64,000 bases of DNA from an uncultured Ignavibacteria bacterium (lineage in GTDB: Bacteria; Zixibacteria; MSB-5A5; SM1-73), in contig CAZOJT010000001.1 of the NCBI GenBank assembly GCA_964580215.1, forward strand, positions 126,475-190,474, written 5' to 3'. The notes below the pieces were generated by a model. It had not been told where the DNA came from and ran no database searches. It saw only the letters and a program-made list of their open reading frames with translations. Made by a program: the position numbers and the translations under genes. Below, one piece after another: positions 1-64,000 of the stretch; positions within the stretch are counted from its first letter, which is position 1; each line of letters begins with the position of its first letter.

Positions 1-1
1 T

Positions 2-316
2 ATGGGAATCTTCAAGCAATCAGATAATCCTTTGGATAATATTTCATACATCTATGTAACGGACGAACAGGAAAAGTTGCTTGGAGTGGTGACTCTGCGG
101 GAGTTGATTTTGAATCCACCGGCGGCGAAAGTTAGCAGTTTTATGAACCGGGATATTATCAAATTGAAAGTCGAAGATTCAGTCAAGCAAGTGGCTGAAA
201 CCTTTAAGAAGTATAAATTTTTGACCATCCCGGTGGTGGATGGGCAAGATCGGATGAAAGGAATAATAACCTTGAGGGATGGAGTGGAGGCGATCTTCCC
301 GGAATTTGGAGAATAA
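2..316 (+). CDS. CBS-domain protein (MgtE-like cytoplasmic CBS pair), 5' end outside window
   Basis: ORF runs to the window edge. The CBS-pair-like segment is LLGVVTLRELIL...FLTIPVVDGQDRMKGIITLRD. No TM segment, and it sits directly upstream of an NRAMP transporter. Confidence 0.55.
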   Translation: MGIFKQSDNPLDNISYIYVTDEQEKLLGVVTLRELILNPPAAKVSSFMNRDIIKLKVEDSVKQVAETFKKYKFLTIPVVDGQDRMKGIITLRDGVEAIFPEFGE

Positions 317-331
317 AGAGAGCGTAGATTT

Positions 332-463
332 CAGACACCAGATATCAGACACCAGACGGCAGACGCCAGATTTCAGATTAATCCTTTATCTGCTTACTGC
401 AATCTGTTATCTGCCTACTGGAGTCTGTTATCTGCATAATGTTATCTGTTTACCTTTTCCCTT
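332..463. repeat. Tandem direct repeats in NRAMP leader (CAGACACCAGAT-like x3-4, then TGTTATCTGC x3-4)
   Basis: Visible by eye: tcagacaccagatatcagacaccagacggcagacgccagatttcagat followed by ctgttatctgc repeated at about 10-25 nt spacing up to the NRAMP start codon. Confidence 0.6.
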
Positions 464-1714
464 ATGACTAAAAGTCTGTTATCAAAATCTCGATGGAGAA
501 ATGCACTTATCCTTCTGGCGGTGATAGGTCCTGGAATAATCACCTCTAACGTGGATAACGATGCTGGCGGAATCGCCACCTACTCCATTGCCGGTGCTCA
601 TTTTGGCTATTCTCTGATCTGGTCGCTTATTCCCATCACGTTAGCGCTTATCATAATCCAGGAGATGAGCGCTCGCATGGGGGTGGTTACGGGCAAAGGT
701 CTGTCCGATCTGATAAGGGAACATTTCGGGGTAAAGATAACCTTCTATCTCCTGACGGCTTTAATATTCACCAATTTCGGAAACACCATAGCGGAGTTTG
801 CCGGAATAGCCGCCAGCTTAGAGATATTTCACGTCTCCAAATACATTTCCGTGCCCCTGGGTGCTCTCTTCGTCTGGATGCTGGTGGTGAAAGGGACTTA
901 CAAATCAGTGGAGAAAGTTTTTCTGGGGGCTTGTCTTTTTTACCTCACCTACATTGTATCCGGTTTTTTAGCCAAACCGGATTGGAATGCAGTGAAAGAC
1001 AGCATATTGACTCCCGAGTTAGAGTTTTCCGCGGGGAGCTTTGGCATGTTGATTGGATTGATCGGGACCACCATCGCTCCCTGGATGCAGTTTTATCTGC
1101 AGTCCGCGGTGGTGGAGAAAAACATCAAGTTGAAGAATTATAAATACTCCAGGGCGGATGTTATCTCCGGAAGTTTCATGGTAAACCTGGTGGCTCTTTT
1201 TATAATTGTGGCTTGTGCTACCACTCTTTCCAAAGCAGGAATCAGAATCGAAACGGCAAAGGATGCGGCTTTGGCATTAGCACCTTTAGCGGGAAAGTAT
1301 TGTTCCTATCTTTTTGCATTCGGTCTTTTGAATGCGTCACTTTTTGCCGCTTCCATATTACCACTCTCTACTGCTTATGTGGTCTGTGAAGGAATGGGAT
1401 GGGAGCAAGGGGTGGATAGGAAATTCTCCGAAGCACCACAGTTTTATACCCTATACTCTCTTTTGATATTTTTGGGAGCAGGGGTGGTGCTCTGGCCCAA
1501 TCTACCACTTATCCCCATCATGTTCATCTCTCAGGTGGTAAACGGCATAGTTCTTCCCGTAATTCTCATCTTCATATTGATACTTATCAACAACAAAAAG
1601 ATCATGGGGTCATATACCAACGGTAGAGGCTTTAATATCTTAGCCTGGCTGACCGTGGTGATTCTGATCGCTCTCAGTGTTATGCTTCTGCTGTTGATGT
1701 TTGGGATAGTCTAA
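464..1714 (+). CDS. mntH: NRAMP family divalent metal cation transporter (MntH-like)
   Basis: 416 aa and multi-TM. Carries the NRAMP signature GPGIITSNVDNDAGGIATYSIAGAHFGYSLIWSL and the QEMSARMGVVTGKGL motif. Confidence 0.85.
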   Translation: MTKSLLSKSRWRNALILLAVIGPGIITSNVDNDAGGIATYSIAGAHFGYSLIWSLIPITLALIIIQEMSARMGVVTGKGLSDLIREHFGVKITFYLLTALIFTNFGNTIAEFAGIAASLEIFHVSKYISVPLGALFVWMLVVKGTYKSVEKVFLGACLFYLTYIVSGFLAKPDWNAVKDSILTPELEFSAGSFGMLIGLIGTTIAPWMQFYLQSAVVEKNIKLKNYKYSRADVISGSFMVNLVALFIIVACATTLSKAGIRIETAKDAALALAPLAGKYCSYLFAFGLLNASLFAASILPLSTAYVVCEGMGWEQGVDRKFSEAPQFYTLYSLLIFLGAGVVLWPNLPLIPIMFISQVVNGIVLPVILIFILILINNKKIMGSYTNGRGFNILAWLTVVILIALSVMLLLLMFGIV

Positions 1715-1898
1715 ATTATACCAGACTGCTGGCAAATCAAAAAATTTAAAATGCAAAAAGAAAAATTCAAAAATACAATTGAAAATCCAAAGTTACCTCT
1801 CATTCCACATGATTGTTACCTGCGAATTTTCAATTTTGAATTGCAATTTTGCTTTTTGCTCTTTGATTTTTGAATTTTCTTTCAACAAAGTTTATTTC

Positions 1899-1927
1899 TT
1901 GACAGCACTTTGGTTTCCCCGTAAATT
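1899..1927 (+). promoter_or_regulatory. Sigma-70-like promoter (TTGACA-17-TAAATT) upstream of the two-component operon
   Basis: TTGACA at 1899-1904, a 17-nt spacer, then TAAATT at 1922-1927. An AT-rich A-tract region lies upstream, and the ATG of the kinase is about 35 nt downstream. Confidence 0.4.
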
Positions 1928-4055: not shown

Positions 4056-5423
4056 ATGGCACTTTATCGAATTTTGATAGTGGATGACGATGAACATCAG
4101 AGAGAACAATTATCTGGCTTTTTGAAAAAGCAGGGTTTTAGCGTGACAACTGCTGAATCGGGTCTAGAGGCGATAAATCTTTGTCAAGACAAACATTTCG
4201 AGGTGGCTCTGATCGATCTAAAGATGCCCGGAATGGATGGAATTGAACTTTTAAAGAAGCTGAAAGAGTCAAACCCGGAAATTCAGGTGATTATGATCAC
4301 CGCGCACGGCTCGGTGGACACTGCAGTTGAAGCTATGAAACTGGGAGCATATCACTATGTAAATAAGCCAATTAACCTTGATGAGTTGAAACTAAACATT
4401 AACAAAGCCCTAGAAAGCTATCATCTTGTGTCGGAGAACAAATATTTAAAGGAGCAACTGGAAGAAAAATATAAGGATGTTCAGATAATCGGGAATAGCA
4501 AGGCAATAAAAGAGGTGCTAAGCACGGTTTCCCGGGTGGCAAAAACGAAATCGACTGTTTTGATAAGAGGCGACAGCGGGACAGGAAAAGAGCTCGTAGC
4601 AAGGGCAATTCATGCTTTAAGTGATCAAGCAGACCAAAGATTTATTCCCATCTCCTGTGCGGCTTTGCCGGAGACTCTCTTTGAGTCGGAGCTATTCGGA
4701 CATGAAAGAGGCGCCTTTACCGGAGCAATCAAGAAGAGAGAAGGTAGATTTGAACTGGCTGATGGGGGAACTCTGTTTTTGGATGAGGTGGGGGATATTC
4801 CCCTAGAGACCCAGGTTAAACTCCTTAGGGTGATTGAGTCGCAGGAATTTGAAAGATTAGGCGGTAAGGAAACTTTAAAAGTGGATGTGCGCATTATCTC
4901 TGCCACCAATCAAGACCTGGAGAAGAAGATCAAAGAGAGGAGTTTCAGGGAGGATCTGTATTATCGGCTGAATGTGATTTCCGTATTCATTCCCCCTTTG
5001 CGAGAAAGAAAAGGAGATATTTTGCTTTTAGTGGATCACTTCATCAAGAAAGCCAATCAAAAATGTGGCAGATCAATTAAAGGGATTACTCCAGAGGTCA
5101 AGGACTTAATTTTAAATTATGATTGGCCTGGAAACGTGCGGGAGCTGGAGAACGTGATCGAGAGGGGAGTAGTTCTTTCCAGGACAGAGGTGATAGACAA
5201 AACAGACCTGCCGTATTTTGGATTGGTGTCGGATAAATCTCTTAAGCATCTTCCATCCGCATCACTTTCTCTTAAAGATGTAGAAAAAGATCATATCTTG
5301 AGGGTTTTAAAAAAGACCAATTGGAACTTGAACAAGACCGCAGAGGTTTTGGGAATTCACCGAAATACACTTCGTTTGAAGATGAAAGAATATGGAATCG
5401 AGAAGGTCAACGGATTAAACTGA
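4056..5423 (+). CDS. Sigma-54-dependent response regulator (REC + AAA+ sigma-54 activator + Fis-type HTH), NtrC/AtoC/ZraR family
   Basis: REC domain (ILIVDDDEH...DLKMPGMDG). Walker A GDSGTGKELVARAIH and the GAFTGA motif ESELFGHERGAFTGA. C-terminal HTH NKTAEVLGIHRNTLRLKMKEYGI. Confidence 0.9.
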   Translation: MALYRILIVDDDEHQREQLSGFLKKQGFSVTTAESGLEAINLCQDKHFEVALIDLKMPGMDGIELLKKLKESNPEIQVIMITAHGSVDTAVEAMKLGAYHYVNKPINLDELKLNINKALESYHLVSENKYLKEQLEEKYKDVQIIGNSKAIKEVLSTVSRVAKTKSTVLIRGDSGTGKELVARAIHALSDQADQRFIPISCAALPETLFESELFGHERGAFTGAIKKREGRFELADGGTLFLDEVGDIPLETQVKLLRVIESQEFERLGGKETLKVDVRIISATNQDLEKKIKERSFREDLYYRLNVISVFIPPLRERKGDILLLVDHFIKKANQKCGRSIKGITPEVKDLILNYDWPGNVRELENVIERGVVLSRTEVIDKTDLPYFGLVSDKSLKHLPSASLSLKDVEKDHILRVLKKTNWNLNKTAEVLGIHRNTLRLKMKEYGIEKVNGLN

Positions 5424-5620
5424 TGAAATGGTCAACAGATTAAGCGGATTGTGTCTCTTGCTTCTCGTTGGCATTCGGTGGCTGGCAGACTTCACCTGTC
5501 CTATGATGGTTCGGCTCAACCGGGTCCCTGCTGAGGGGAAATGAATCGAGGCTGAAGAACAGCCGACAGTGCGAACTGCCTATGCATTATGATATTTGAC
5601 GTTTTGCAGAGAATGGAATT

Positions 5621-6259
5621 ATGAGAAACAAGATCAGAATATGCTATTATAACCTCTTTTCTCGTTTTTACGACGCTTTCGTTGCCTTACACTCCGGTGA
5701 CCCCGGTGGAAGATTGAGGGATCATCTGGCCGGAAAGGTTGGGTTAAAAAGCGCTGATGCGGTCTTAGACATATGTACCGGCACGGGAGCTATGTTGTCG
5801 AGTCTGCGCAAACGTATAGATGAGGAAGGGATGGTGGTTGGTCTTGATTTCTCAAGAGGAATGTTAAGGGCAGCCAGATCCAAACTTGCCTCCTATCCGA
5901 ATATCTTCTTGATCGAGGCGGACGTTTCCAACCTTCCTTTTAAGAATGACGTCTTCTCCGGCGTTACCTGCTCACATGCCTTCTATGAACTGAAAGGAGA
6001 TGCTTCAGTCAAATGTTTGCGTGAGATACATCGGGTACTCAGGAAGGGGAAGCATTTTTTGATGATGGAACATGAGGTTCCAGAGAATAGATTTGTTAGG
6101 ATGCTTTTTTATGTCAGGATATTCTTTATGGGTCGGAAGAAAGCCCTGGAGATTCTAAAAGAAGGGGAGAAGATATTCAGAAATAATTTTGGCCGGGTGG
6201 AAAAGTCAAAGACAGAAGACAGCAAGTCGAAAATCGTAGTCTGCGAAAAGGGGCGATAG
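5621..6259 (+). CDS. Class I SAM-dependent methyltransferase (UbiE/COQ5-type, methyltransf_11-like)
   Basis: Motif I VLDICTGTGAM, post-I GLDFSRGML and motif II/III region LIEADVSNLPFKNDVFSGVT. Confidence 0.7.
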   Translation: MRNKIRICYYNLFSRFYDAFVALHSGDPGGRLRDHLAGKVGLKSADAVLDICTGTGAMLSSLRKRIDEEGMVVGLDFSRGMLRAARSKLASYPNIFLIEADVSNLPFKNDVFSGVTCSHAFYELKGDASVKCLREIHRVLRKGKHFLMMEHEVPENRFVRMLFYVRIFFMGRKKALEILKEGEKIFRNNFGRVEKSKTEDSKSKIVVCEKGR

Positions 6260-6299
6260 CGCATTGACTTCCGCTGGCGCAACGGAGATCCTTCGGGCG

Positions 6300-6450
6300 G
6301 GAGATGAACGGGTCAACAGATTAAACGGATGAGACTGATGAATTGATGTCCCCTCTCCCCTTGGGGGAGACGAAGACCCGTCTGGGAGGGATGGGGTGAG
6401 GGGGAAAGTAATGGTCAACGGATTAAACGGATGAAGCGGATTAAGTGTCC
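6300..6450. repeat. Short repeat unit TGGTCAACRGATTAARCGGATGA, two copies flanking a G/C hairpin; further copies at 5405-5450 and (inverted) 51730-51765
   Basis: Copies at 6311-6332 and 6413-6445. The same word forms the last codons of the response regulator (EKVNGLN, 5403-5423) and recurs at 5428-5447 and 51744-51760 (reverse complement). Confidence 0.5.
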
Positions 6451-6487
6451 GTGTAATTCTGGTTAATCAAACTCAGGAGGAGAAGCT

Positions 6488-6832
6488 ATGGAGAAGATGA
6501 TTGCTTTTTGCGGGCTGGTTTGTACCGAATGTCCGGCATTCATTGCCACACAGAAAGATGATGAAGAAGAAAGAAGAAAAGTGGCTGAAATGTGGTCCAA
6601 AGAGTTTAAGATGGATTTGAAACCCGAAGACATCAACTGCGATGGGTGTTTAATTGACAGTGAAAACCTTTTCAGTCACTGCAAGGTTTGTCCAATACGG
6701 AAATGCGGAAAAGAGAAGAGAGTCGAAAATTGCGCCTATTGCGATGAATATGCGTGCGAAAAACTGACCAACTTTTTCAAAATGGCGCCCGAGGCAAAAA
6801 CGACTCTTGATAAAGTAAGAAAGATTCTCTGA
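6488..6832 (+). CDS. DUF3795-family cysteine-rich protein
   Basis: 114 aa with Cys pattern CGLVCTECPAF ... CDGC ... CKVCPIRKC ... CAYCDEYAC, typical of DUF3795 proteins. Good RBS GGAGGAG. Confidence 0.55.
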   Translation: MEKMIAFCGLVCTECPAFIATQKDDEEERRKVAEMWSKEFKMDLKPEDINCDGCLIDSENLFSHCKVCPIRKCGKEKRVENCAYCDEYACEKLTNFFKMAPEAKTTLDKVRKIL

Positions 6833-6899
6833 TTTTTCCATCTGCAGAACGCCGTTTTCATTTGTTCCCGTTCTTGCTTATCACCAATGGTGTTTAGTT

Positions 6900-7075
6900 G
6901 GTAGGGCGGGCATCCTTGCCCGCCGAATTTATGCGGGGCTGGAAGCCCCGCCTACGAATCGAGGTTTCCGTAGGGACAGGGCTTGGCCCTGGTGCGAACC
7001 AGAACGAGGACAGCCACAAGGGCTGTCCCTACGTCTGAATACCTGGAGCGGGCGCCATGAATGGCGTCCCTATAA
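6900..7075. repeat. Cluster of GC-rich extragenic palindromes (REP-like family C: gcggggctgg..agccccgcctacg)
   Basis: Hairpins gggcgggcatccttgcccgcc, gcggggctggaagccccgc and gggacagccacaagggctgtccc. Related copies at 9633-9775 and 22556-22663. Confidence 0.6.
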
Positions 7076-9632: not shown

Positions 9633-9775
9633 TGCGGGGCTGGTCATCCCATAGGCAGATCCCCCGCCTCTGGCGGGGGAGAGCCCCGCCTACGCGGGAC
9701 TTGTGGATGATAACATCCACAAGGAGCAGAAAGTCACGTAGGGTCCCACCTCAGGCGGGACGAACTCAGGCACTT
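9633..9775. repeat. REP-like palindrome cluster (family C copy)
   Basis: catgcggggctggtcatcccataggcagatcccccgcctctggcgggggagagccccgcctacg, plus hairpins gtggatgataacatccac and gtcccacctcaggcgggac. Confidence 0.6.
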
Positions 9776-14676: not shown

Positions 14677-14876
14677 AACTCACCTTTTTTTCTTGTGACG
14701 TTGTTCCTTATTCTGACCCTGTGCTACTTATAAGTAAAAATATATTGGAAAAAAATCAACAAAAATTTTTGCTTGCGATGCCAATTATGAATTATTCATT
14801 ATTTTAAAAAATTGGACATGTTACATGAGTTTGAAGTAGTAGGGACAGTCCTTGTGTCTGTCCTCATTAAAGAGCT

Positions 14877-15030
14877 TGTCGAAAAACCACAAAAAGGTCA
14901 TTTGTGTCATTCTGAACGAAGTGAAGAATCTAATAAATTCAACATGTTACAAATACGTATACACTCATACGAGTTTGAGATTCTTCCCCCGCCAAAGGCG
15001 GGGTCAGAATGACATTTCTCGACAGGCTCT
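14877..15030. mobile_element. MITE-like element A, copy 1 (TIR tgtcattctga / tcagaatgaca)
   Basis: About 150 bp with an internal palindrome (cgtatacactcatacg), hairpin cccccgccaaaggcgggg and terminal inverted repeats. Copy 2 at 18217-18390 is near-identical. Confidence 0.55.
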
Positions 15031-16959: not shown

Positions 16960-17040
16960 TTATCCTTTATCTCACCCCTTGTGTTCCCCTTTCCATAAAA
17001 TGGAGAGGTGGATTGGGGGTGAGGTTTCAGTTAATTCAAG
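16960..17040. repeat. Repeat family D copy (..ccctttccataaaatggagaggtgg..)
   Basis: Shares the catgaaatggagagggg core with 20085-20110 and 56695-56715. Related ccttcagggtgaa hairpins occur at 56660-56690, 61650-61700 and 62140-62160. Confidence 0.45.
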
Positions 17041-18204: not shown

Positions 18205-18216
18205 GATCCAAGCGTG

Positions 18217-18390
18217 TCGAAAAACTACAAAAAGGTCCTTTATGTCATTCTGTCCGAATTTGGATCCATAGGAAACGAAGTGAAGAATCTAATAAATTCA
18301 ATATGTTTCAAATGCGTATGCACTCATACGAGTTTGAGATTCTTCCCCCGCCAAAGGCGGGGTCAGAATGACATATCATGACAGGCTCAT
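18217..18390. mobile_element. MITE-like element A, copy 2 (with a 20-bp internal insertion gtccgaatttggatccatagg)
   Basis: Alignable by eye to 14877-15030 over about 150 bp, with the same TIRs and the same hairpin cccccgccaaaggcgggg. Confidence 0.55.
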
Positions 18391-19658: not shown

Positions 19659-19688
19659 GCCAGAACCCAATTGGGTTCTGGCTTTTTA
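19659..19688 (+). terminator. Rho-independent terminator
   Basis: gccagaaccca-attg-ggttctggc followed by TTTTT, 13 nt after the radical SAM stop codon. Confidence 0.6.
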
Positions 19689-19839
19689 CTAAAGGTGAGC
19701 AGTGTCCAATACTTCAATAACTTTTTGATTGAGTTCTTTGCGACTTTTAGTGGCTTAAGCTCTTCATAGGAAAATGAATCATAAGAATACGGTCTATAAG
19801 CTTGAAAACCTCCGTTGTTGCGGGATACCCTTCGACCTG

Positions 19840-19935
19840 CGCCCTCAGGGCAAGCCCTTACCCCGCAACATGCGTATGCTCGTATGAGTGCATACGCACA
19901 TTCATACGAATTTCTGGTTCGGGGTGAGGGCACCC
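19840..19935. repeat. Palindromic repeat (gcgtatgctcgtatgagtgcatacgcacattcatacgaat family) plus GC hairpin
   Basis: Shares the tcgtatgaatgtgcgtatgcactcatacgag word with the elements at 48690, 56480 and 63720. Confidence 0.5.
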
Positions 19936-20228
19936 CGAACCAACCTTTGCGGTAACATCCGCCTGGGCGTGGTGCGGAAGCTTGCTTCCGCAAACGTCCC
20001 GCCTCTGGCGGGATGTACTCCGGATTTTACATTTTGAACACCTCACCCCCCTGCCCCCTCTCCACCCAGACGGGTGGGCGTCTGCCCATGAAATGGAGAG
20101 GGGTTCACCATGAGGGGTTCATCCTGAAGGGGACAAAGAGGGAGAGGTTAAAGAAAGCCCGGCTTCGCATCAGGCGAAACCGGGCTCAAGTTTACCTGAA
20201 TGAGAAAAACTTATATTCACTGTAAAAG

Positions 20229-22526: not shown

Positions 22527-22555
22527 CGTTCCCAAAAGCTCTGAAAAAGTCATTT

Positions 22556-22663
22556 GCGTATGCTCGTCCCGCCGTTGGCGGGACGCACATTCATACGAAT
22601 TTGCGGGGTTGGTCATGCCTTAGGCAGATCCCGCCACAGGCGGGGGAGAGCCCCGTCTACGGT
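22556..22663. repeat. Composite repeat (tcgtatgaat-family fragment + family C REP)
   Basis: gcgtatgctcgtcccgccgttggcgggacgcacattcatacgaat followed by gcggggttggtcatgccttaggcagatcccgccacaggcgggggagagccccgtctacgg. Confidence 0.5.
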
Positions 22664-22837: not shown

Positions 22838-23707
22838 GTGTCGAACAGAATACAAATAGATCTGCTAGAGAAAATAGTTGGAAAAAACGGTCTCCAGATC
22901 ATTTCCGAAAGAGTTATCCTGTCCCCGGAGGATGCTCCGGCTATATCCGAGATTGTAAAATTAGCCAACCAGGAGAAGTTCAAGATACTGCCATTAGGCT
23001 CAGGCTCGAGTCTTGATTGGTCAAAACTCTCCTCCCCTCGACAAGCTCAGGGCGGTGACAGTTCGACTTCGCTCACTGTCTCTGAACAAGGTCGAAGGGA
23101 GCGAAGTCGAACCGCAGAGAATGTGGTCATCTTGAAGTCAGACAGGCTGAACAGGATCAAAAAGGTGGTTCCCGAAGATCTGTATGTGATTGTTGAGGCT
23201 GGTTTTCCTCTTAAGGATTTAAACCGTCATCTGGAATCATTTAATCTGTTTTATCCACTTGCCCCGCAAAGTACGGGGCTGGCAGATACCAGTTCTGCTG
23301 GTACTATGGGGGGAGCGGTGGCAACTAACCTTAAAGGGGAATCCGGTCATAGGAATATTCAGACCAGGGAGTATGTTCTGGCATTGGAGGTGATTGATCC
23401 CGAAGGTCAGATCTTAAACGTGGGGGCAAAGACGTTTAAATCGGTGACCGGATACGATCTTCCTCGCCTTTTTGTAGGGTCCTGGGGGAGTCTGGGCTTT
23501 ATCAGCCAGATAAGCCTAAGATTGGTGCCTGCAAGAAAAAGAAATGATTATCCGGACATAATATTTGATCCAGCCAGAATAGATGAGATCAAAGGACCAA
23601 ACAACTTCAAAACCATCTTAAGTTCCCGCATCAAGAAGTCACTGGACCCTAACGGGGTTTTCTTTAGTTTCGATTCCTTCAGGATGAATCGTTTCCTTCG
23701 ATCCTGA
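22838..23707 (+). CDS. FAD-binding PCMH-type oxidoreductase subunit (GlcE-like), GTG start
   Basis: FAD_binding_4-like ...LGSGSS...AGTMGGAVATNLKGESGHRNIQTREYVLALEVIDPEGQILNVGAKTFKSVTGYDLPRLFVGSWGSLGFI. It carries an extra segment of about 28 aa relative to GlcE. Confidence 0.65.
   Translation: MSNRIQIDLLEKIVGKNGLQIISERVILSPEDAPAISEIVKLANQEKFKILPLGSGSSLDWSKLSSPRQAQGGDSSTSLTVSEQGRRERSRTAENVVILKSDRLNRIKKVVPEDLYVIVEAGFPLKDLNRHLESFNLFYPLAPQSTGLADTSSAGTMGGAVATNLKGESGHRNIQTREYVLALEVIDPEGQILNVGAKTFKSVTGYDLPRLFVGSWGSLGFISQISLRLVPARKRNDYPDIIFDPARIDEIKGPNNFKTILSSRIKKSLDPNGVFFSFDSFRMNRFLRS
23061..23112. repeat. Perfect 14-bp inverted repeat (gttcgacttcgctc ...25 nt... gagcgaagtcgaac) lying inside the FAD-protein CDS
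   Basis: Seen directly. It coincides with the extra SSPRQAQGGDSSTSLTVSEQGRRERSRTAEN segment of the protein. Confidence 0.6.
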
Positions 23708-30804: not shown

Positions 30805-30835
30805 CACGTTCGCTGTTCGTCACGGACTTGTCCTG

Positions 30836-30895
30836 ATCCCCCGCCAAAGGTGTGAACCACATGGTTTACACCAAAGGCGGGGGAGAATGGACGCC
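30836..30895. repeat. Long GC-rich hairpin (cccccgccaaaggtgtgaaccacatggtttacaccaaaggcggggg)
   Basis: Related hairpins occur at 24222-24256 (ggaggtgtgaaccatacggttcatac) and 37693-37720 (ggtatgaactgtatggttcatacc). Confidence 0.5.
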
Positions 30896-33067: not shown

Positions 33068-34600
33068 ATGGATACATTTGAAAAAAAGCTAAGAAAGATT
33101 CAGAGACGAGATTGGCAGATATGGATTTTAATGCTCGGCATGTTTTTGGTCTTCGCCACCTTCATCGTTGTGGTGATTTTCTACTCCGATCTTCAACGGC
33201 TTTATGAAGAGCAAATAGACGCCCAAATGTTCAACGTTCTGCTTTTGGGGTTTGTGGCCCTTTCTTTACTCTTTATTGGCTACGTGGTACTGAAGGAGAT
33301 GGCTATCAAGAAGCTTCAAAAGGAACTTATGGAACGCAGGATCACCTTCCAGGTTTTGGAGCAACGTTTGAGGGATATTCAAGAGGCATTTGAGGTGATC
33401 ACCTTGGTTAACTCCGAAATGGTGCTCTCCATGGTCTTGGACACCATATCCATCAAAGCCCTTAAAACCCTCGGCGGAGACCAGTGTTCGCTTTTTCTTT
33501 ATGATCCTGAGATAGATAAACTACGCTGCGTTTCGGTTTGGGGTCCCCAAAGCGATCTGATTAAAAATGCAGTAATGGCGGTGGGAAAAAGCGTTGCTGG
33601 ATGGGTGATGCAACATGGAAAACCCCTGCATCTGGGTGAGAACTTAAATGAGAGTCAGTTTTCAGATTTCATCAAAAAGGACAAAAAGATCGCCTCCAGT
33701 TTATGCGTGCCCCTGATGGTGAAAAATAAAGCTAAAGGGGTTTTAAACATCAGTCTATTTGATAAGAAGAAAGAATTCACCGAAACCGATCTGAAGATAA
33801 TCTCCATATTTGCTGAAAATGCCGCCATCTCCATTGAGAAAGCAGAACTTTATGAGAAATTGAGAAAACAGGCGGAGGACTTGAAAAACGCCATCGTCAA
33901 ATTGAAAACCACTCAGGATCGACTTGTCCAACCACAAACGCTTAGGGCTTTGAGCAACTTAGTCAGTGGAATGGCACATGATTTCAATAGCACTTCTACC
34001 GCGATTCTGGATATGATTCCATTGCTTTTAAGGGAGATGGAAGGAGTGGCGGTTCCAGAAGGTACTAAAAAGAACGTATTGAAACAGTTGAAGATTATAG
34101 AAAAACTGGCAACCAATGAGGCAGAGACGGCAAAGCACATTCAGGCATTTGCCAGAACCTTTCAAGCAGGCTCAGAAAAAGATCGTGAGGAGCTGGACAT
34201 CAATGCTATCGTACGGGAGGCGGTGGAGGTAACCAAGCCCAAGTGGAAGAATGAAGTTAAGCTTAAAGGGATGCAGAAAGGAATGGAAACGGAGTTGAAA
34301 AGCTTTTAAATCCTGAGGGTAATCCCTCGGAGATAAGAAAGGTCTTGACCCCATATGATATTTAACCCCATCGACGCCCGACCAGATGGAGGCAAAATAA
34401 AAAACCGCATCAACAAGTTGATGCACTCCGGGAAAATCTGCAGGGATGAACCCTGCGCTACGCAGGCTTTGTTGGGGCAGGGGTTTAACCCCTGCCCCAA
34501 CTTAAGACAAGCTCTTCAGGATAAACTTGGGCACTACATTTGTAGGTCCGCAATGCTCTCATTGGGGGACTTTCGGACAATTAATTTTGTAGTTGCCTGA
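33068..34600 (+). pseudogene. GAF-domain sensor histidine kinase, disrupted in the HATPase region (3 in-frame stops, apparent -1/+1 indel pair in T-runs, degenerate G-boxes)
   Basis: The TM, GAF and HisKA (SGMAHDFNST) regions are intact to 34309. The N-box is readable only by frame-hopping: ...ELKSF / LNPEGNPSEIRKVLTPYDI / FNPIDARPDGGKIKNRI. The downstream G1/G2 boxes are degraded. Confidence 0.5.
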
Positions 34601-37911: not shown

Positions 37912-38484
37912 AAGATGATGTATGAAGTAAAGAAAATCTGCGTGTATATCATCGGTGAAAAAGACTCAGTGCTTATGAAAGATCTGCCTTTTTACCTGGA
38001 GTCCACATTTCATCGGAACATAAAAGTGGATGAGTTGGAGATGAATCTGGATTTTGCTTATTATCCCAAAAGAAAACAATATTCTTCTTCAGCTATTTTA
38101 GATAGATTAAAAACGATGAAAAATAAAGAATGTGATCGTTTGCTGGCGATAGTGGATGTCGATCTTTATGTGCCGGAGTTGAATTTCGTGTTTGGAGAGG
38201 CAAATTTTCAAACAAAGGTGGCAGTGATCTCTTCTATCAGATTAAGACAGGAATAATACGATTTGTCCGCAGGATCTCAGTTGAGTCAAATGACCATAAG
38301 ACCTGAAAATAAACAGCTATTTCTGGAGAGGGTGACAAAGGAGGCGGTGCATGAACTGGGTCACACCTATGGTCTGCCACACTGTCCGGACCCAAAATGT
38401 GTGCTGCATTTTTCCAATAGCTTATGGGATACCGATTTTAAGTCCTATTCTTTCTGCGAGAATTGCAAGAGGAACTGGGGTTAA
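37912..38484 (+). pseudogene. amzA: Archaemetzincin (peptidase M54) gene interrupted by an in-frame TAA (38254-38256) within a repeat-like insertion
   Basis: The C-terminal part has the [24 protein letters not shown]...CENCK zinc signature, and the N-terminal part has ...GEANFQTKVAVISSIRLR. Both are in the same reading frame, separated by QE[17 protein letters not shown]. The inserted DNA (ccgcagg..cagttgagtcaaatga) resembles the repeat at 37735-37775. Confidence 0.55.
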
Positions 38485-45524: not shown

Positions 45525-45526
45525 TT

Positions 45527-48663: not shown

Positions 48664-48937
48664 CATTTACTAAGAGGAGCAGGAAACAGTTTACATCTTA
48701 TTATTCGTATGAATGTGCGTATGCACTCATACGAGCTTCGCATTGATTTTTTCTCCCACACCTGTTTTGGGCTTGACTTGAAATTCGTATGAATGCATAC
48801 GCATCCCCCTTTAGTAAAGGGGGATTTAGGGGGATTTTCCAAGTTTCAAATGCGTCCCGCAAAATGCGGGACGAATCCCCCCTTCCCCCCCATTTTTTTA
48901 GGGGGGATGTAAACAATTATATGCTCCTCTTAGTAAC
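48664..48937. mobile_element. MITE-like element B, copy 1 (about 275 bp, TIR ttactaagaggagcaggaaacagtttacat)
   Basis: Terminal inverted repeats plus internal palindromes ttcgtatgaatgtgcgtatgcactcatacga and G-tract/C-tract hairpins. It sits between the mcsB stop and the clpC start. Confidence 0.65.
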
Positions 48938-51484: not shown

Positions 51485-51978
51485 AATCTTATTATATTTT
51501 TATTTTCGCCATTTTTTTCGCTTTATTTACCAACAGCATCAAACTTTGAGCATCCAATAACATTTTAGCTTGAAAAATGGATTTGTCAATAGAAAAGTGA
51601 ACTGAAAATGTAGATACCAAATACAAATCAGACACCCCCGAAAGGTTTACCCTTACGGGCTCACCAAAGGCGGGATGGATAATAACGTCTACAGGTAGCA
51701 GAAAATCCCTCACAGCAGATTAAGCAGATAAAAATCATCGGTATCAGCTTAATCCGTTTAATCAGCTGTGAGGCATTCTCCTGCTCCCCGATATGTTATC
51801 CTAACGGGGGCGCATGTCCTCCCCTCTGGGGATCTCCGTCATCCCACGACATTAGTCGAAGATCCCGCCGAAGGCGGTGATTGAAAACCCCGCCAGAGTG
51901 GGGCGGTATCAATAAAATGACGCCCATACAAAAATCAAACTTGAGATTGAATCCACCTTAAGCTATATTATAAAAGTT

Positions 51979-52013: not shown

Positions 52014-52557
52014 AAGTGAACTGAAAAGTTTCGCCATTTTTTTCAATTTACCCCACAGGCTGAAGCTACGTTGCACACCCGGGTACTCCATTAGCAAAAA
52101 TATGGCGAAAAATTGTTGATTTTTGGAAGAAAATGGCTATGTTAAGGGCAATTTGTTGCCCGACAGAACTTTTAGGTCACAGAAGTTTTCGGACATAAGA
52201 TAAGGAGGTAACTACTTGGAAATTCATTTTGGAACTGGCATAAGAGCTCCGAACCCCACCCTGTGGAGCGGGATAGAATGTATCCTGAGTTTAATAGTGT
52301 TTAAAGGTCAAACATCAATTTTAAGGAGAAAGCGTCAAGATGAATTCATAAAAAGGTTGAGATGTTCGGTTAACGTTGGCGAAGTCCGAATTTGGATCCA
52401 TAGGACTGGTATCGATGCTGGAGGCTCGAAGTTGGAAGCTGAAACACCTAATTGGACAAAGAAATCTTCGAGTGTCGAGCTTCGAAAGACAAACTTCGTT
52501 ACGAATCTCGACAACAACATCCGAGCATCGAGCCTTATCAAAGGAGGTGATTAAAAT

Positions 52558-56372: not shown

Positions 56373-56426
56373 TTATCCCCGCCCAGGGCCAAATTTATGG
56401 TTATGGAGAGCCAGAATCTAACTTAT

Positions 56427-56572
56427 TAAGGAGAGCATATAATTGTTTACATCCCCCCTTTAGAAAAGGGGGGAAGGGGGGATTCGTATGAATGTGCGTA
56501 TGCACTCATACGAGCATACGCACATTCATACGAATAATAAGATGTAAACTGTTTCCTGCTCCTCTTAGTAAG
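56427..56572. mobile_element. MITE-like element B, copy 2 (internally deleted, about 145 bp)
   Basis: Same ends as the copies at 48664 and 63526: ..gagagcatataattgtttacatcccccc... and ...atgtaaactgtttcctgctcctcttagtaa. Confidence 0.6.
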
Positions 56573-56639: not shown

Positions 56640-56720
56640 TCTACCTCACGCCTTTTGTTCCCCTTCAGGGTGAATCCTTCAGGGTGAACCCCTCTCCATG
56701 AAATGGAGAAGGGGATAGGG
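56640..56720. repeat. Repeat family D copy (ccttcagggtgaatccttcagggtgaacccctctccatgaaatggag)
   Basis: Matches 61650-61700 and 20085-20110. Confidence 0.5.
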
Positions 56721-56985
56721 AGTGAGGATTTTTGAGTTGTAGGTCGGATATGTCTCGCCAGAGGCGGGACTATCCGACATTTGTTCTGTCCGAAACCACC
56801 GCCTTTGGCGGGGATTTCGGACCTACAATTGACTCAAATTTGAACCAAATCATTAAATTATTAAAATAAAATGTCGAAATTCTTATGGAAAGTTAAAAAT
56901 TTCTGCAACATCCCCATATTCACAACGTATAGTATTCTAAGTTAGAATAGTATAGATTATAATAACTCTGGGAGAGAGCGGCTTT

Positions 56986-61644: not shown

Positions 61645-61705
61645 TCATTAGGCAGGGCTGAATGCCCTTCAGGGTGAATCCTTCAGGATGAACCCTGCCC
61701 TATGG
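61645..61705. repeat. Repeat family D copy downstream of RND permease
   Basis: ggcagggctgaatgcccttcagggtgaatccttcaggatgaaccctgccc hairpin. Confidence 0.5.
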
Positions 61706-61805
61706 GTGATGAGACATTGTTGCCCATAGGGGCGGGAATTTATCCTGCCCCGAAGTGGGGTTTTTGAACACGCCCTAAAAACCGCAGAACAAAGGATAAA
61801 TCACG

Positions 61806-62093
61806 ATGAAACTAATCTTTTTGATATTCAACAGCCCCTTAGAGCCTGATGTGAAGGATCTTTTAAAAAAGGCTGAAGTGGCTCATTATACCCGCTGGGA
61901 AAAGGTCAAAGGAGTGGGCGAAACCGGTCCGCACTTCGACGATGAGGTCTGGCCATCGGTGAATATAGCCCTGATGTTTTCTTTGGAAAACGAAAAGAAA
62001 AACGAAGTAGCTGAGGGTGTGCGAAAAATCAGAGAGCAGTTTCCCGATGAGGGAATACGCATGTTGGTCTTGCCACTGGAGGAAATAGTGTAA
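61806..62093 (+). CDS. Small hypothetical protein (95 aa) inside the RND operon
   Basis: ORF with RBS-like aaaggataaatcacgATG between permease and TolC. No motif recognised. Confidence 0.35.
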   Translation: MKLIFLIFNSPLEPDVKDLLKKAEVAHYTRWEKVKGVGETGPHFDDEVWPSVNIALMFSLENEKKNEVAEGVRKIREQFPDEGIRMLVLPLEEIV

Positions 62094-62194
62094 AAACAAG
62101 AGCCAGGCTGAAGCCTGCCGCTATCGAATGGTATGGTAGCCGCACCCTTCAGGGTGCGAAAAACAGACTTTTTGCGTGTCCAGAGGAGGTAGGA

Positions 62195-63493
62195 ATGCTT
62201 TTCAGATATCTTTCAAGGATTACTTTAGTACTCTTACTGTTATTTAATTTTTGCGAGGCACAAGACAAGAGAATCAACTTGAATTTAGATCAAAGTCTTA
62301 AGATTGCTTATGAAAACAATAAAACTCTTTTGCAGTTACAAGAGAAGATCAATACGGCAAAATATCAAATAGATGAAGCTAAATCAGGCTTCTATCCGCA
62401 ATTGTCCTTCAGCGGAAGCTATACCCGTTTGGCAGAGGTTCCCGGCTTTGATATGGGAGGAATGGGAAAAGCCAAGTTGGGTACAGAGAACAATTATGAC
62501 CTTAAGCTTTCCTATCAACAACCTCTGTTCACCTGGGGAAAAATTCGGGCGGGATACGATATATCGAAATACAATCTTTCCCTAACCAGAGAGGAATATC
62601 GAAAGACAAAACAGGAGATAAAGTTCAACTTAGTCAATCTATTCTATAATATCCTTTTGGCTGAGGAATTGATCAAAGTCAGAGAAGAATCAATCGCCCG
62701 AATCGAGGACCATCTCAGCACAGTTCAAGAAAGATATGACAAAGGGTATGCCTCGGAGTTTGACGTATTGAGGGTCAAAGTCCAACTGGCCAATGCCAAA
62801 CCTCCTCTTGTGCAAGCGAAGAATCTTTATAGCTTAACCTTAGACAACCTGAAAAACCTTCTTGGAATCAGTTTGAAGGACTCGGTTGGTCTGGAAGGCA
62901 CCTTAGAGTTTCAACCTATAGAGGTGGATCAGTCTCGTGCGGAGGAATTTGCCTTCAAAAATAGATCTGAATTGAAGTCGATATTTCATCAGGGAAGAAT
63001 TGCCCAAGAAGCGCTGAATATTGCCAAAGCGACCAACAAGCCCAATTTGTTGGGAATAGCCAATTATGAATACAAAAAACCTTTCTATTTCAATGACGAA
63101 TGGGAAACGGATTGGAATTTCACCTTCCTGGTGACCGTTCCCATATTCGACGGGTTCCTGACCAGATCAAAGGTTCGTCAGGCAAGATCGGATTTAAAGC
63201 AGATAGATATTGCTGAAAAACAGATTCAGGATTTTATAAAATTAGAGATCAGTCAAGCCATCTCCGATCTAAATTTAGCCAAAGAGAATATCCTCTCCCA
63301 GGAGGAGAATGTAAAGCAAGCCAATGAGAGCTTGAGGATCGCCAAGGTGCAATACGGAAAGGGCATGTTGACTAACCTGGAGTTGATGGATACAGAGTTC
63401 GCCTTGACCGTGGCGGAGACCAATTATCTTCAGGCGCTATCAGATTATCTGATCGCCAAAGCCAAGTATGAAAAAGCGATCGGAAAAGATTAA
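62195..63493 (+). CDS. TolC-family outer-membrane efflux protein
   Basis: Signal peptide, then two OEP repeats (..LSLDQSLKIAYENNKTLLQLQEKINTAKYQIDEAKSGFYPQL.. and ..LELMDTEFALTVAETNYLQALSDYLIAKAKYEKAIG). Confidence 0.8.
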   Translation: MLFRYLSRITLVLLLLFNFCEAQDKRINLNLDQSLKIAYENNKTLLQLQEKINTAKYQIDEAKSGFYPQLSFSGSYTRLAEVPGFDMGGMGKAKLGTENNYDLKLSYQQPLFTWGKIRAGYDISKYNLSLTREEYRKTKQEIKFNLVNLFYNILLAEELIKVREESIARIEDHLSTVQERYDKGYASEFDVLRVKVQLANAKPPLVQAKNLYSLTLDNLKNLLGISLKDSVGLEGTLEFQPIEVDQSRAEEFAFKNRSELKSIFHQGRIAQEALNIAKATNKPNLLGIANYEYKKPFYFNDEWETDWNFTFLVTVPIFDGFLTRSKVRQARSDLKQIDIAEKQIQDFIKLEISQAISDLNLAKENILSQEENVKQANESLRIAKVQYGKGMLTNLELMDTEFALTVAETNYLQALSDYLIAKAKYEKAIGKD

Positions 63494-63525
63494 AAAAAAC
63501 AGGGTCATGGGGCAAAAAAATATAA

Positions 63526-63790
63526 TTACTAAGGGGAGCATATAATTGTTTACATCCCCCCTAAAGAAATGGGGGGAAGGGGGGATTCGTATGAATGCAT
63601 ACGCATTTGAAACTTGGAAAATCCCCCTAAATCCCCCTTTACTAAAGGGGGATTCGTATGAATGCATACGCATTTCAAGTCAAGCCCAAAACAGGTGTGG
63701 GAGAAAAAATCAATGCGAAGCTCGTATGAGTGCATACGCACATTCATACGAATAATAAAATGTAAACTGTTTCCTGCTCCTCTTAGTAAA
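63526..63790. mobile_element. MITE-like element B, copy 3 (full length, opposite orientation to copy 1)
   Basis: TIRs ttactaagg(g)gagcatataattgtttacat ... atgtaaactgtttcctgctcctcttagtaa. The internal ggggattcgtatgaatgcatacgcattt is duplicated. Confidence 0.65.
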
Positions 63791-64000
63791 TAAGTTCTTG
63801 TTCCGGCGGGATATTGTTCATTTGGATATTGAGATTATCCCGCCGAAACCCTATCTTCTGACAAGCCTTTTCATAGATGGTTCGGGGTTGCCCTTCAGGG
63901 CTTATTGAAAAAGCTACACTTCGGAGCGGGATGACGGAGACCCGTCTGGGAATTCCCGCTCCTATGGGAGACAATTACTTATCATCCATAGGCCAGGGCA

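Follow-up and report, generated by a model that had tools for sequence, protein, structure and literature searches.

Several families of small hairpin-forming elements, probably mobile, in the intergenic DNA of a Zixibacteria chromosome

Introduction

The pneumococcal repeat unit (RUP) is a short, non-coding element of 107 nt that inserts at TA and whose 9-nt ends are similar to those of an IS630-family element; its numerous intergenic copies tend to insert in other repeats, and IS630-Spn1 is believed to mobilise it in trans (PMC2229807). The Rickettsia palindromic elements (RPE) are found inserted in frame in protein genes (PMC2229807). REP and REPIN sequences combine a GT(A/G)G head with a GC-rich imperfect palindrome of 20-40 nt and are arranged in inverted pairs; the associated rayt gene is single-copy, has a stable neighbourhood and is bracketed by two inverted REPs (PMC2817692, PMC5581495 and PMC3733652). 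The BIMEs of E. coli are mosaic repeats (PMC2817692).

Here we describe the repeats of a 64-kb stretch of a Zixibacteria chromosome, hereafter the window. With a probability of about 0.8, several independent families of mobile elements, all small, non-coding and hairpin-forming, have settled in its intergenic DNA, relying on transposases encoded elsewhere.

Results

Repeats occupy at least 21% (21.4%) of the intergenic bases of the window, against 0.6% of its coding bases. A preliminary description had stated that most intergenic regions longer than 150 bp contain one, and indeed 21 of the 31 gaps of at least 150 bp carry a dispersed repeat of at least 20 nt. Perfect stem-loops (stem of at least 8, loop of 3-10) number 24 in intergenic DNA, where 1.4 are expected, a 17-fold excess, whereas the 6 found in coding sequence are at chance level (5.0 expected). 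The four families listed in that description were all recovered where it had placed them or a few bases away, far above chance and with hardly any copies outside intergenic DNA. It had also considered that the copies might come from local duplication or show no enrichment outside the window; they are instead dispersed across many unrelated contigs, families A, C and D, as well as further units, being present in about 0.9 Mb of non-colinear, unrelated contigs.

The largest of the families, B, appears from its sequence to be a MITE of the IS630/Tc1-mariner type. Its inverted ends measure 27-31 nt, with TA on both sides, and the end pattern has six matches in the window against 0.00 expected from shuffles. 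A 275-bp element had been announced at 48664, 56427 and 63526. The first and third are full-length copies, 93% identical over 272 nt: one lies between mcsB and clpC (48668..48935, minus strand; a 264-nt core plus TA on each side, with the ends CTAAGAGGAGCAGGAAACAGTTTACAT and ATGTAAACAATTATATGCTCCTCTTAG), where three independent assemblies break within the element, and the other after the OEP gene (63527..63788, plus strand; DNA fold z = -10.1). The second, by contrast, is in the repeat alignment a 143-nt internal-deletion derivative, 147 nt with its flanks (56424..56570, plus strand), and it interrupts a palindrome at its centre (AGAGCCAGAATCTAACT-TA ... TA-AGTTAAGTTCTGGCTCT).

The family B end was found at 27 places in MAGs: a single MAG labelled Ignavibacteria has 11 of them, Zixibacteria MAGs have three, and the others are spread over Desulfobacterales and related Deltaproteobacteria, Syntrophaceae, Nitrospinota, Neomarinimicrobiota and one unclassified MAG; it was also found in at least 117 metagenome stretches. 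Among the matches listed, 106 from metagenomes had a recognisable partner end, and 98 of these gave an element of 125-334 nt. TA stands immediately outside the left end in 86 of 87 distinct elements, at a position that the search pattern left free. Between contigs of different organisms, segments of family B show 97-100% identity. In contig L101, the element splits a perfect palindrome, GGAATCCAGAACC-TA-[B]-TA-GGTTCTGGATTCC, with CTAG at its centre.

These ends are identical at 24 of 27 positions to those of a 1119-bp IS630-family element from a metagenome (L130), which is bounded by TA-CTAATCAGTGCATAAAGTAGTTTACAT ... ATGTAAACTACTTTATGCTCCCCTTAG-TA and whose 343-aa ORF scores 231.5 bits with NCBIfam transpos_IS630 (cut-off 100) and also matches Pfam DDE_3 (1.4e-36). 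In a remnant, L078, the same end adjoins the 3' end of a transposase gene. A 75%-identical IS630 copy, P0103, is recorded on 13 contigs; the six listed, all TA-flanked, belong to the sample series in which the window's strain is likewise present. The IS630 gene matching family B lies on contigs other than the window's, and no copy with exactly the ends of family B (...CATATAATTGTTTACATCCCCCC) was found among the IS630 elements recovered. IS630 flanks occur in mixed combinations across contigs. Judging from the flanks of family B and its IS630 partner, TA would be duplicated upon insertion. The features of this family, whose TA-flanked inverted ends match an IS630 DDE element, do not fit a Y1, IS200/IS605 or TnpB mobiliser.

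Family B thus resembles RUP in being short and non-coding, in its IS630-like inverted ends and TA flanks, in its many intergenic copies and in landing within repeats. It differs in its size (143-264 nt against 107), in its longer ends (27-31 nt against 9), in its host, Zixibacteria, and in an interior made of a variable string of hairpin modules. Moreover, the same end heads different MITE interiors in MAGs of at least five other bacterial groups (Desulfobacterales with related Deltaproteobacteria, Syntrophaceae, Nitrospinota, Neomarinimicrobiota and the one labelled Ignavibacteria). More broadly, the family can be likened to the Tc1/mariner-derived MITEs of the Stowaway type.

Family C, which had been described as clusters at 6900, 9633 and 22600, was recovered as three units on the plus strand. 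At 6901..6955 there is a REP doublet (GTAGGGCGGGCATCCTTGCCCGCC, spacer, GCGGGGCTGGAAGCCCCGCCTAC; fold z = -4.9), at 9633..9694 a REP with a nested hairpin in its loop (CCCCCGCCTCTGGCGGGGG; repeat alignment), and at 22602..22661 a further such REP, also with a nested hairpin and sharing 87% identity with the one at 9633-9694. GTAGG-headed REP units stand at 9737..9761 (CGTAGGGTCCCACCTCAGGCGGGAC, plus strand; motif scan) and, after the third family C unit, at 22683-22709; a REPIN-like inverted doublet (CGTAGGGACAG ... CTGTCCCTACG; 6969..7033, plus strand) is present in 4 other contigs. The window has 3 occurrences of the family C tail GCCCCGYCTAC, where 0.05 are expected, and 10 GC-rich intergenic hairpins headed by GTAGG, a motif whose enrichment in intergenic relative to coding DNA is only 2.5-fold.

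Copies of the REP-C motif are few in the remaining ~0.9 Mb, 5 in all, of which 3 surround a RAYT gene. This ORF (L057:6063-6554) scores 122.8 bits with NCBIfam NF047646 (cut-off 80) and carries an HUH motif (HLH) and the tyrosine in IYIENNP. It is bracketed by GGTAGG-hairpin ... GCGGGGC-loop-GCCCCGCCTAC doublets, the same as at 6899-6958 of the window, where the doublet 6901..6955 has their architecture and the GCGGGGC/GCCCCGCCTAC stems are identical to those of the RAYT flanks. The locus is flanked by C-type REPs only, with no A, B or D ends. The gene is single-copy, its ORF is intact and conserved, and its flanks and gene neighbourhood are also kept in an 87%-identical relative. Although it lies on a contig other than the window's, the tetranucleotide correlation of the two is 0.972, and the identical RAYT is present in samples 3300031643 and 3300031554, both of which also hold the window's strain. 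Within the window, no transposase gene was found by Pfam scans of 40 of the 45 mapped genes, and RAYT-like and IS630 queries gave no matches to its DNA. We infer that the RAYT and the IS630 transposase genes belong to the window's own genome. The proposal of a dedicated RAYT encoded elsewhere holds for family C, for which a RAYT with C-type flanks was found, but family B matches IS630 instead and no mobiliser was found for families A and D.

Like the E. coli REP/BIME system with YafM and the Pseudomonas REPINs, family C has the head, the palindrome, the inverted pairing and a bracketed, single-copy RAYT. Unlike them, it forms a doublet of two different hairpins (GGGCA..TGCCC and GCGGGGC..GCCCCGC), and nested hairpins or family D units sit within the loops of its REPs; its copy number looks modest, its lineage is Zixibacteria, and its RAYT is known from a separate contig.

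Family A, expected at 14877 and 18217, consists of two palindromic elements on the plus strand that are 94% identical: copy 1 at 14872..15029 (fold z = -5.8) and copy 2 at 18210..18388, where the alignment reveals an extra 21-nt module (18253-18273) that also stands alone at 52384-52405. Copies or fragments of this family lie in 8 other contigs. Family D units had been noted at 16960, 20040, 56640, 61645 and 62100 and were found there, the last being a short related hairpin at 62144. The element of ~85 nt at 56643..56725 (plus strand; in 10 other contigs) has 12-nt inverted ends (ACCTCACCCCCT / AGGGGGTGAGGT), tandem CCTTCAGGGTGAA units and a hairpin CCCCTCTCCAT-N3-ATGGAGAGGGG. Alignment identified a variant between acrB and the P-II gene (61660..61740, plus strand), a partial copy (16965..17030, plus strand) and a copy with a nested insert (~20040-20150, minus strand). 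This last copy is part of a mosaic cluster (19659..20150, no strand assigned; up to 43 other contigs match), together with a palindrome GCCAGAACCCAATTGGGTTCTGGC, a B-type module (19871-19911) and three more hairpins. From alignments of their copies, no mobiliser or target duplication was definable for families A and D.

The alignments of families A, B and D reveal small hairpin modules that are common to several families, exchanged and nested. CCGCC-N3-GGCGG hairpins are common to families A, B, C and D, and GCGTATGCACTCATACGAG is present in both A and B. A B/A-type module (GCGTATGCTCG[...]CGCACATTCATACGAAT; 22549..22600, plus strand) has the hairpin TCCCGCCGTTGGCGGGA where the module at 19871-19911 has TATGAGTGCATA, and a REPIN-like doublet (GTAGGTCGGA ... 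TCGGACCTAC; 56738..56827, plus strand; 7 contigs; fold z = -9.0) holds a CCGCC-N3-GGCGG hairpin nested in each arm. Two further units, neither with an assigned strand, are a dispersed palindrome (CCCCCGCCAAAGG / GTGAACCA ... TGGTTTACA; 30815..30883; 5 contigs) and a hairpin with a perfect 14-bp stem (GTTGGGGCAGGGGT-tta-ACCCCTGCCCCAAC; 34471..34501; 3 contigs). Pneumococcal BOX (boxA/B/C) elements combine short modules whose number and order vary. The clusters of the window are, like these and the BIMEs, composites from a small set of such modules, but here modules are nested in the loops of other modules and exchanged at fixed positions in transposon-like elements with inverted ends.

Two in-frame copies had been reported within genes. 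That of the FAD-binding oxidoreductase gene (22838-23707) is confirmed as an 81-nt palindromic unit (23036..23116, plus strand) of 27 codons that preserves the frame and has no stop. The unit shares 90% identity with an intergenic copy (L065:5977-6066); it is absent from 13 of 15 orthologs and common to orthologs that are only 79% identical. The insert of ~60 nt in the archaemetzincin gene (37822-38484) also keeps the frame (38248..38307, plus strand; ~18-20 extra codons relative to PDB 2x7m), but has a TAA stop (38254-38256), and a related unit is found at 37738-37780. The FAD-gene insert recalls the RPE, being also intergenic and in frame in a conserved enzyme gene, with no stop and with orthologs that lack it. 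In contrast to the RPE, there is one clean case in 64 kb, the archaemetzincin case has a stop, and the inserts bear no sequence relationship to RPE.

Near-identical strains from several samples were compared at three window sites and carry every element there, and no empty site turned up for any window copy. One 20-nt internal hairpin module in the family B copy 63527..63788 (TTCGTATGAATGCATACGC plus one G, relative to L001-L003) is the sole difference observed, between strains 99.8% identical. On other contigs, L141 carries a 154-nt MITE flanked on either side by CTA that L074 lacks at the orthologous site, which suggests that this element class is mobile in the lineage.

Discussion

The repeats could be selected structures of the host (intrinsic terminators, stem-loops that stabilise mRNA or binding sites for proteins, for example) instead of mobile DNA. 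Most of them do sit between co-directional genes, often just 3' of a stop codon (for instance those at 19659, 61660 and 63527, which follow a radical-SAM gene, acrB and the OEP gene respectively), and PMC3733652 reports that REPs of other bacteria act at the RNA level. However, a T-run follows only 1 of the 24 intergenic perfect hairpins, and the same units are found in either orientation, at divergent promoters (14872), in genes (23036, 38248) and nested in each other. The same elements recur in hundreds of unrelated contexts, and the TA-flanked inverted ends of family B match a transposon. We therefore consider this explanation improbable, although some copies may have acquired a secondary host use. 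Even less probable is that one system, a RAYT or an IS200/IS605-type Y1 enzyme, moves all families, inverted-end elements included. It would agree with the hairpins common to the four families and with the segment present in A and B; in addition, some RAYT genes are reportedly flanked by long inverted repeats and not by REPs (PMC3733652). The close match of the B ends to an IS630 DDE element, their nearly constant TA and the RAYT flanks made solely of C-type REPs argue against it. Y1/HUH (IS200/IS605) elements typically have no inverted ends or target duplications, which also counts against a single enzyme. The preliminary description was thus right that the elements are of MITE/REP type, dispersed and not local duplicates, but they do not form one system, as B matches IS630 and C is linked to a RAYT.

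A stronger contender, though still unlikely, is that the repeats are fossils, inactive remnants of old bursts that persist because they are slow to be deleted. The lack of presence/absence polymorphism at the three window sites is in line with this, as are window copies that are 87-94% identical and not identical, the numerous truncated or internally deleted copies, and the FAD-gene insert common to orthologs only 79% identical. Such a view sits uneasily with the near-identity of family B segments across organisms, the module that differs among 99.8%-identical strains, the intact multi-copy IS630 relative in the same sample series, the intact RAYT ORF and the MITE present or absent between related contigs. 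The system had been called active; transposition may still be taking place, but all elements are present at the window sites compared. As to a metagenome-assembly artefact, with chimeric joins or collapsed repeats misplaced in the contig, assemblies do break exactly at repeats (L004, L005, L033-L035, L172, L173) and the IS630 flanks are mixed; however, the same junctions and flanks recur at 99.8-100% identity in independent assemblies from at least six samples, for families A, B, C and D, and the elements are short enough to be spanned by single reads or read pairs. This last explanation is hardly credible.

We thus favour colonisation by several mobile families, on whose window copies the IS630 transposase and the RAYT would act. 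A DDE transposase would recognise the 27-31 nt inverted ends of family B and insert the element at TA, for the most part in TTAA or CTAG and frequently in the middle of another palindrome. The GTAGG-headed hairpins, family C included, are REPs in inverted doublets (REPINs) and would be spread by a single-copy HUH/Y1 tyrosine transposase, the RAYT, whose own gene is bracketed by the same doublets. Families A and D are modular palindromic elements drawn from a shared stock of short hairpin modules, and elements would insert into one another's loops, giving rise to mosaic clusters. An element that occasionally lands in a gene would survive there when it is free of stops and a multiple of three in length, as in the FAD gene; otherwise the insertion would break the gene, as in archaemetzincin. 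The repeat families of this Zixibacteria chromosome are known kinds of bacterial selfish DNA, namely miniature IS630-type transposons and RAYT-linked REP elements.

Repeat load of the window

The repeats of the window are new families of known types, namely an IS630-type MITE, GTAG REP/REPIN units with a REP-associated tyrosine transposase (RAYT), and an RPE-like coding insert. What sets them apart is an unusual density, a conspicuous shuffling of modules and a little-studied phylum. They lie in a bacterial chromosome segment of ~44% GC with ordinary genes (Nramp, a histidine kinase with a sigma-54 activator, mtnA, radical-SAM, fumarase, ctsR-type mcsA/mcsB-clpC, and acrAB with an outer-membrane factor). 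NCBI names for orthologs of its FAD-binding protein are Zixibacteria or Zixiibacteriota, and contigs 99.8-100% identical to the window are present in several JGI and Logan assemblies.

According to our gene map, 21.8% of the window is intergenic. Perfect stem-loops (stem of at least 8) numbered 24 in this fraction, with 1.4 expected from local shuffles, and 6 in coding DNA, with 5.0 expected; the intergenic density of CATACG-type words was 18 times the coding density. When only sequence recurring in the window or in ~0.9 Mb of non-colinear contigs was counted, repeats accounted for 21.4% of intergenic bases versus 0.6% of coding bases. Therefore, the repeats can neither be ascribed to local duplication only nor be regarded as unenriched elsewhere, two possibilities that the preliminary description had raised. 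Its four palindromic families, A to D, were recovered by self-comparison at essentially the positions proposed, and most intergenic gaps above 150 bp do hold a repeat, as it had stated (21 of the 31 gaps of at least 150 bp).

Searches of the window with Rfam at gathering thresholds and with a tRNA scan gave no matches. The CCGCC-N3-GGCGG hairpins were considered as lookalikes of tRNA anticodon arms and dropped, their loop being without U33. A CRISPR array was likewise rejected: there are no regular arrays, just short tandems of 2-6 copies, and the repeats vary in sequence and lie scattered. Among 40 of the 45 mapped window genes, Pfam detected no transposase family.

Several other features of the window were observed. 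Tandem repeats (14-nt x3.7 and 21-nt x3.1) occupy 326-450, upstream of the Nramp gene, and GTTTAAA x5.9 at 16852-16892 overlaps the stop of the mtnA-like gene. Units of 35 nt beginning with GGTCAACNGATTAAACNGATGA occur at 5396-5450, 6311-6345, 6413-6447 and 51701-51780, as direct repeats around a hairpin cluster plus one inverted pair, and are shared with 2-3 other contigs. These units represent either one more family of dispersed repeats or sites for a regulator, situated downstream of the sigma-54 activator gene. A 1063-aa Type IIG (Eco57I/MmeI-like) restriction-methylase fusion gene at 25458-28649 has 35% GC, compared with 44% for the window, and was probably acquired horizontally. The low-GC block at 41800-46030 (0.33-0.41) is wholly without dispersed repeats. 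Besides small ORFs lacking annotation, it encodes a PD-(D/E)XK_4 protein (44090-45166), and PADLOC returned no match; the block resembles a recent island, not yet colonised by the repeats.

Family B and a candidate IS630 partner

Family B is represented by two copies, at 48668-48935 (minus strand) and 63527-63788, which are 93% identical over 272 nt, and by a third at 56424-56570. The preliminary description had given all three as a 275-bp element; the positions hold, but the third copy is internally deleted and measures 147 nt. The end pattern of the family was matched 6 times in the window, with 0.00 expected. The inverted ends are 27-31 nt long and 84% complementary, and the cores in the window span 143-264 nt, below the 400 bp taken as the upper limit for a MITE; no ORF was found inside the elements. 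In an alignment of 13 copies, the ends were invariant, the left ~60 nt and right ~50 nt were conserved, and the interior varied by the presence or absence of discrete modules of 10-20 nt.

We searched for the end pattern GTAAAC-N7-TGCTCC-N-CTTAGTA(A) more widely. In species-representative genomes it occurred at 27 places, 11 of them in one MAG labelled Ignavibacteria and 3 in two Zixibacteria MAGs; in the latter two MAGs the whole element is shared. The other 13 places, in Desulfobacterales and other Deltaproteobacteria, Syntrophaceae, Nitrospinota, Neomarinimicrobiota and one unclassified MAG, share the ~30-nt ends alone and have short, differing interiors. At 15 loci from other phyla, the neighbouring ORFs included no transposase; all were housekeeping genes, and the elements were short. 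JGI metagenomes carried the pattern on at least 117 stretches, and the end-to-end distance was 125-334 nt in 98 of the 106 matches listed with a recognisable partner end. Viral contigs scanned for the end gave no matches, and a literature search for its sequence returned unrelated primers only. The two ends of a family B-type pair stand ~136 nt apart on L041 (5633-5768), a contig with 66.6% GC, so that IS630-type ends reach organisms of very different base composition.

The insertion site is equally regular. Among the matches listed, TA lies directly outside the left end in 86 of 87 distinct elements, a position that the search pattern left unconstrained; in the window, each of the three copies is flanked by TA at both ends. 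One base further out, T predominates on the left and A on the right, which makes TTAA the typical site. In one contig (L101), family B splits a perfect palindrome at its CTAG centre, and the window copy at 56424 likewise interrupts a 36-nt palindrome at its centre. Palindromic flanks of the kind ...GAACC-TA-[B]-TA-GGTTC... are compatible with a target duplication of TA. No empty site was found, and the TA is a putative target-site duplication. IS200/IS605-type elements are marked by a lack of inverted ends and of target duplication, by subterminal hairpins and by a TnpA/TnpB gene nearby. Elements of this type, or palindrome-associated derivatives, were rejected for family B because of its inverted ends and TA flanks.

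A candidate partner came from the long outliers among the end matches. The metagenome element L130 is 1119 bp long and bounded by TA, and its right end CTAAGGGGAGCATAAAGTAGTTTACAT is identical to the family B left end at 24 of 27 positions. Its 343-aa ORF combines HTH and DDE_3 domains (DDE_3 1.4e-36) and is an IS630-family transposase by NCBIfam NF033545 (231.5 bits, cut-off 100). A decayed copy, L078, has this same end abutting the 3' end of a transposase gene. At E<1e-40 at least 7980 relatives of the L130 protein were counted; almost all are exactly 343 aa long (P0001-P0120), and nearly all lie on contigs of 1.1-1.5 kb, about the size of the element itself. Such a pattern typifies a multi-copy IS collapsed during assembly, which explains why MAGs come without the element. 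One member with 75% identity (P0103) has been recorded on 13 contigs, and the six of these that were listed belong to the sample series that also holds the window's strain. Its copies have several different flanks, with TA every time, and its ends read GCAAAC/CCCCGTAG, so that the exact family B pattern overlooks them. Given the end match, the TA flanks and the IS630 partner, family B is best read, from its sequence, as an IS630-type MITE mobilised in trans. It follows the logic of RUP and IS630-Spn1 in pneumococcus, for which mobilisation in trans has likewise been proposed (PMC2229807).

Larger arrangements were also seen. In Zixibacteria SM23_73_3 (L008/L142, 1-1957), a left and a right family B end surround 1.77 kb; a full-length element of 1.96 kb was rejected, for the ends enclose a broken, frameshifted serine-hydrolase (beta-lactamase-like) gene and not a transposase. 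The arrangement may represent either a cassette bounded by MITEs or an element that was split. On another contig (L143), two inverted copies stand 4 kb apart in a ~4.08-kb span ending at 6892, with a repeat-rich (FG-GAP/VCBS-like) gene of 770 aa between them, a possible composite arrangement.

GTAGG-headed units and a RAYT

Family C lies at 6901-6955, as an inverted doublet, at 9633-9694 and at 22602-22661. Its tail motif was matched 3 times in the window, with 0.05 expected. Exact copies of the family C motif numbered 3 in the window and 5 in the remaining ~0.9 Mb, counts that cover 64 kb plus selected contigs; genome-wide, REP/REPIN copy number is often above 100. Ten intergenic GC-rich hairpins carry a GTAGG head (CCTAC on the opposite strand), and inverted doublets of such units were found at 6901-6955, 6969-7033 and 56738-56827. 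These units conform to the GTAG-type REP/REPIN definition in the literature, in which a GT(A/G)G head precedes a GC-rich imperfect palindrome of 20-40 nt outside genes (PMC2817692; PMC3733652).

A rough search of the compared loci with two consensus-like RAYT queries led to the contig L057. Its ORF at 6063-6554 scores 122.8 bits (cut-off 80) with NCBIfam NF047646, 'REP-associated tyrosine transposase', and has an HLH (HUH) motif and the Tyr in IYIENNP. The gene is bracketed by REPs in inverted orientation, GGTA(A/G)GCTGGGCATC(T)TGCCCAGCG and TGCGGGGCGAGACGCCCCGCCTACC, which are the two-hairpin doublet of window 6899-6958, with identical GCGGGGC/GCCCCGCCTAC stems. These REPs also flank a relative with 87% identity (L168). 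The neighbourhood is conserved in the four places listed and in two contigs with the 87%-identical relative: GH57, a MamF-like gene, the RAYT, then LeuRS, with an RDD-domain gene before LeuRS on the contigs with identical RAYT. This agrees with the description of RAYTs as single-copy and vertically inherited (PMC5581495). The tetranucleotide correlation between the L057 contig and the window is 0.972 (0.986 between the two halves of the window), and the identical RAYT is present in two samples that also hold the window's strain. These matches are suggestive of one genome, short of proof; no accession was found to connect the two.

Families A and D and the hairpin modules

The two copies of family A (14872-15029 and 18210-18388) are 94% identical and have the ends GAGCNTGTCGARAAA...TGTCATTCTGA; they contain a B-type module, GCGTATGCACTCATACGAG, a CCCCGCCAAAGGCGGGG hairpin and an optional 21-nt module. 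Family D, found near 16965 and at 20040-20150, 56643-56725 and 61660-61740, is a palindrome of ~85 nt with 12-nt ends. It contains one or two CCTTCAGGGTGAA units and a CCCCTCTCCAT/ATGGAGAGGGG hairpin, the loop of which bears extra hairpins in some copies. Neither target duplications nor mobilisers were definable for the two families; for A, ATCC was seen at one copy and was not repeated elsewhere. Folding was much stronger for all the elements than for shuffled controls, with z = -10.1 (B), -9.0 (56736-56829) and -5.8 (A).

Modules recur in different settings. The loops of family C units contain nested hairpins (9633, 22602) or, on the contig L135, a family D unit. Hairpins are swapped at a fixed position, as in CTCG[TATGAGTGCATA]CGCA (19881) versus CTCG[TCCCGCCGTTGGCGGGA]CGCA (22562), and in ATTCG[TATGAATGCATA]CGCA (63586) versus ATTCG[TCCCGCATTTTGCGGGA]CGCA in the 48.8-kb family B copy. 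The only within-element difference found between the window and the 99.8%-identical strains is one 20-nt module in the 63.5-kb family B copy. One could imagine that the short hairpin modules (12-25 nt) are themselves the mobile or exchangeable unit, although we consider this improbable. If so, module exchange would imply loop- or hairpin-targeted single-strand insertion or conversion, perhaps RAYT-driven, and IS630-type MITEs would act as carriers of hairpin modules. With related IS630 ends in several phyla, the modules could then move between lineages.

Repeats inside genes

The preliminary description had placed in-frame copies inside two genes. For the FAD-binding protein (22838-23707) this is confirmed: compared with solved homologs it has 27 extra residues (nt 23036-23116), in frame and without a stop. 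The ~90-nt palindromic unit is also intergenic in another contig (L065), at 90% identity. The insert is absent from 13 of 15 orthologs, including the two closest (84-85% identical); the two that have it are 79% identical and bear a further 10-residue insert nested in it. The insert resembles the Rickettsia palindromic elements found in coding genes (PMC2229807). The locus of the closest ortholog showed no synteny with the window. In the alignment of orthologs P0242-P0279, a 9-residue (A/G)FILKIHPE insert in P0243 and P0244 and a 7-residue APQSxGx indel were also seen, this small gene having taken up in-frame insertions repeatedly.

The archaemetzincin gene (37822-38484) has ~18-20 extra codons relative to PDB 2x7m. 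Its two halves share one frame, as proposed, but the insert holds a TAA at 38254-38256, and an RPE-like in-frame insertion fails on this stop. Judging from the reading frame, the gene is therefore probably broken or split. The ~1 kb downstream (38485-39530) holds a 68-aa ORF only, with no dispersed repeats and no Rfam match.

Mobility and rival readings

We then considered what else the repeats might be. An assembly artefact is excluded, the junctions being identical in independent assemblies. Nor can the repeats be explained mainly as terminators or other host structures: of the 24 intergenic perfect hairpins, only that at 19659-19682 precedes a T-run, units are found in either orientation and within genes, and family B has transposon ends. 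Those IS630 ends also conflict with a single Y1-type mobiliser for all families. The preliminary description, which had proposed a MITE/REP system with a RAYT or an IS200/IS605-type mobiliser, was therefore right as to the kind of system and partly right as to mechanism, the RAYT suiting family C but not family B.

The elements may still be moving. The preliminary description had called the system active and had proposed to look for insertion polymorphism among related bins. The elements are present in all near-identical contigs, no empty site having been found for any window copy, and the compared loci held no orthologs of window genes. The lack of any polymorphic window site in the strains compared would favour a fossil state without current movement. 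Against this, intact IS630 and RAYT genes exist, and related contigs differ in carrying another MITE. An all-against-all comparison of the loci returned one N-gap artefact, two non-repeat indels and this one true presence/absence: a 154-nt MITE in L141 (~2404-2557) that is missing from the orthologous site of L074 (~2895), with flanks 87% identical. It has CTA on both sides and contains GTAGGGGCGATTCATGAATCGCCCCTAC nested in a TCATTGCGAGG...CGTAATGA palindrome.

Significance

These findings do not overturn current understanding. They show that in a member of the uncultured phylum Zixibacteria at least one fifth of the intergenic DNA consists of selfish hairpin elements belonging to two or more mechanistic classes, and for two of the classes a candidate enzyme can be named. 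Metagenome assemblies of this organism break at these elements; autonomous IS630 copies fall out as orphan contigs of 1.1-1.5 kb, drop out of binned genomes systematically and are consequently under-reported in MAGs. Gene annotation is affected as well, as the elements create spurious ORFs, lengthen one enzyme and probably disrupt another gene. Finally, one IS630 end sequence heads differing MITE interiors in MAGs of several bacterial phyla, and hairpin-module shuffling gives an opportunity to study how such repeats diversify.
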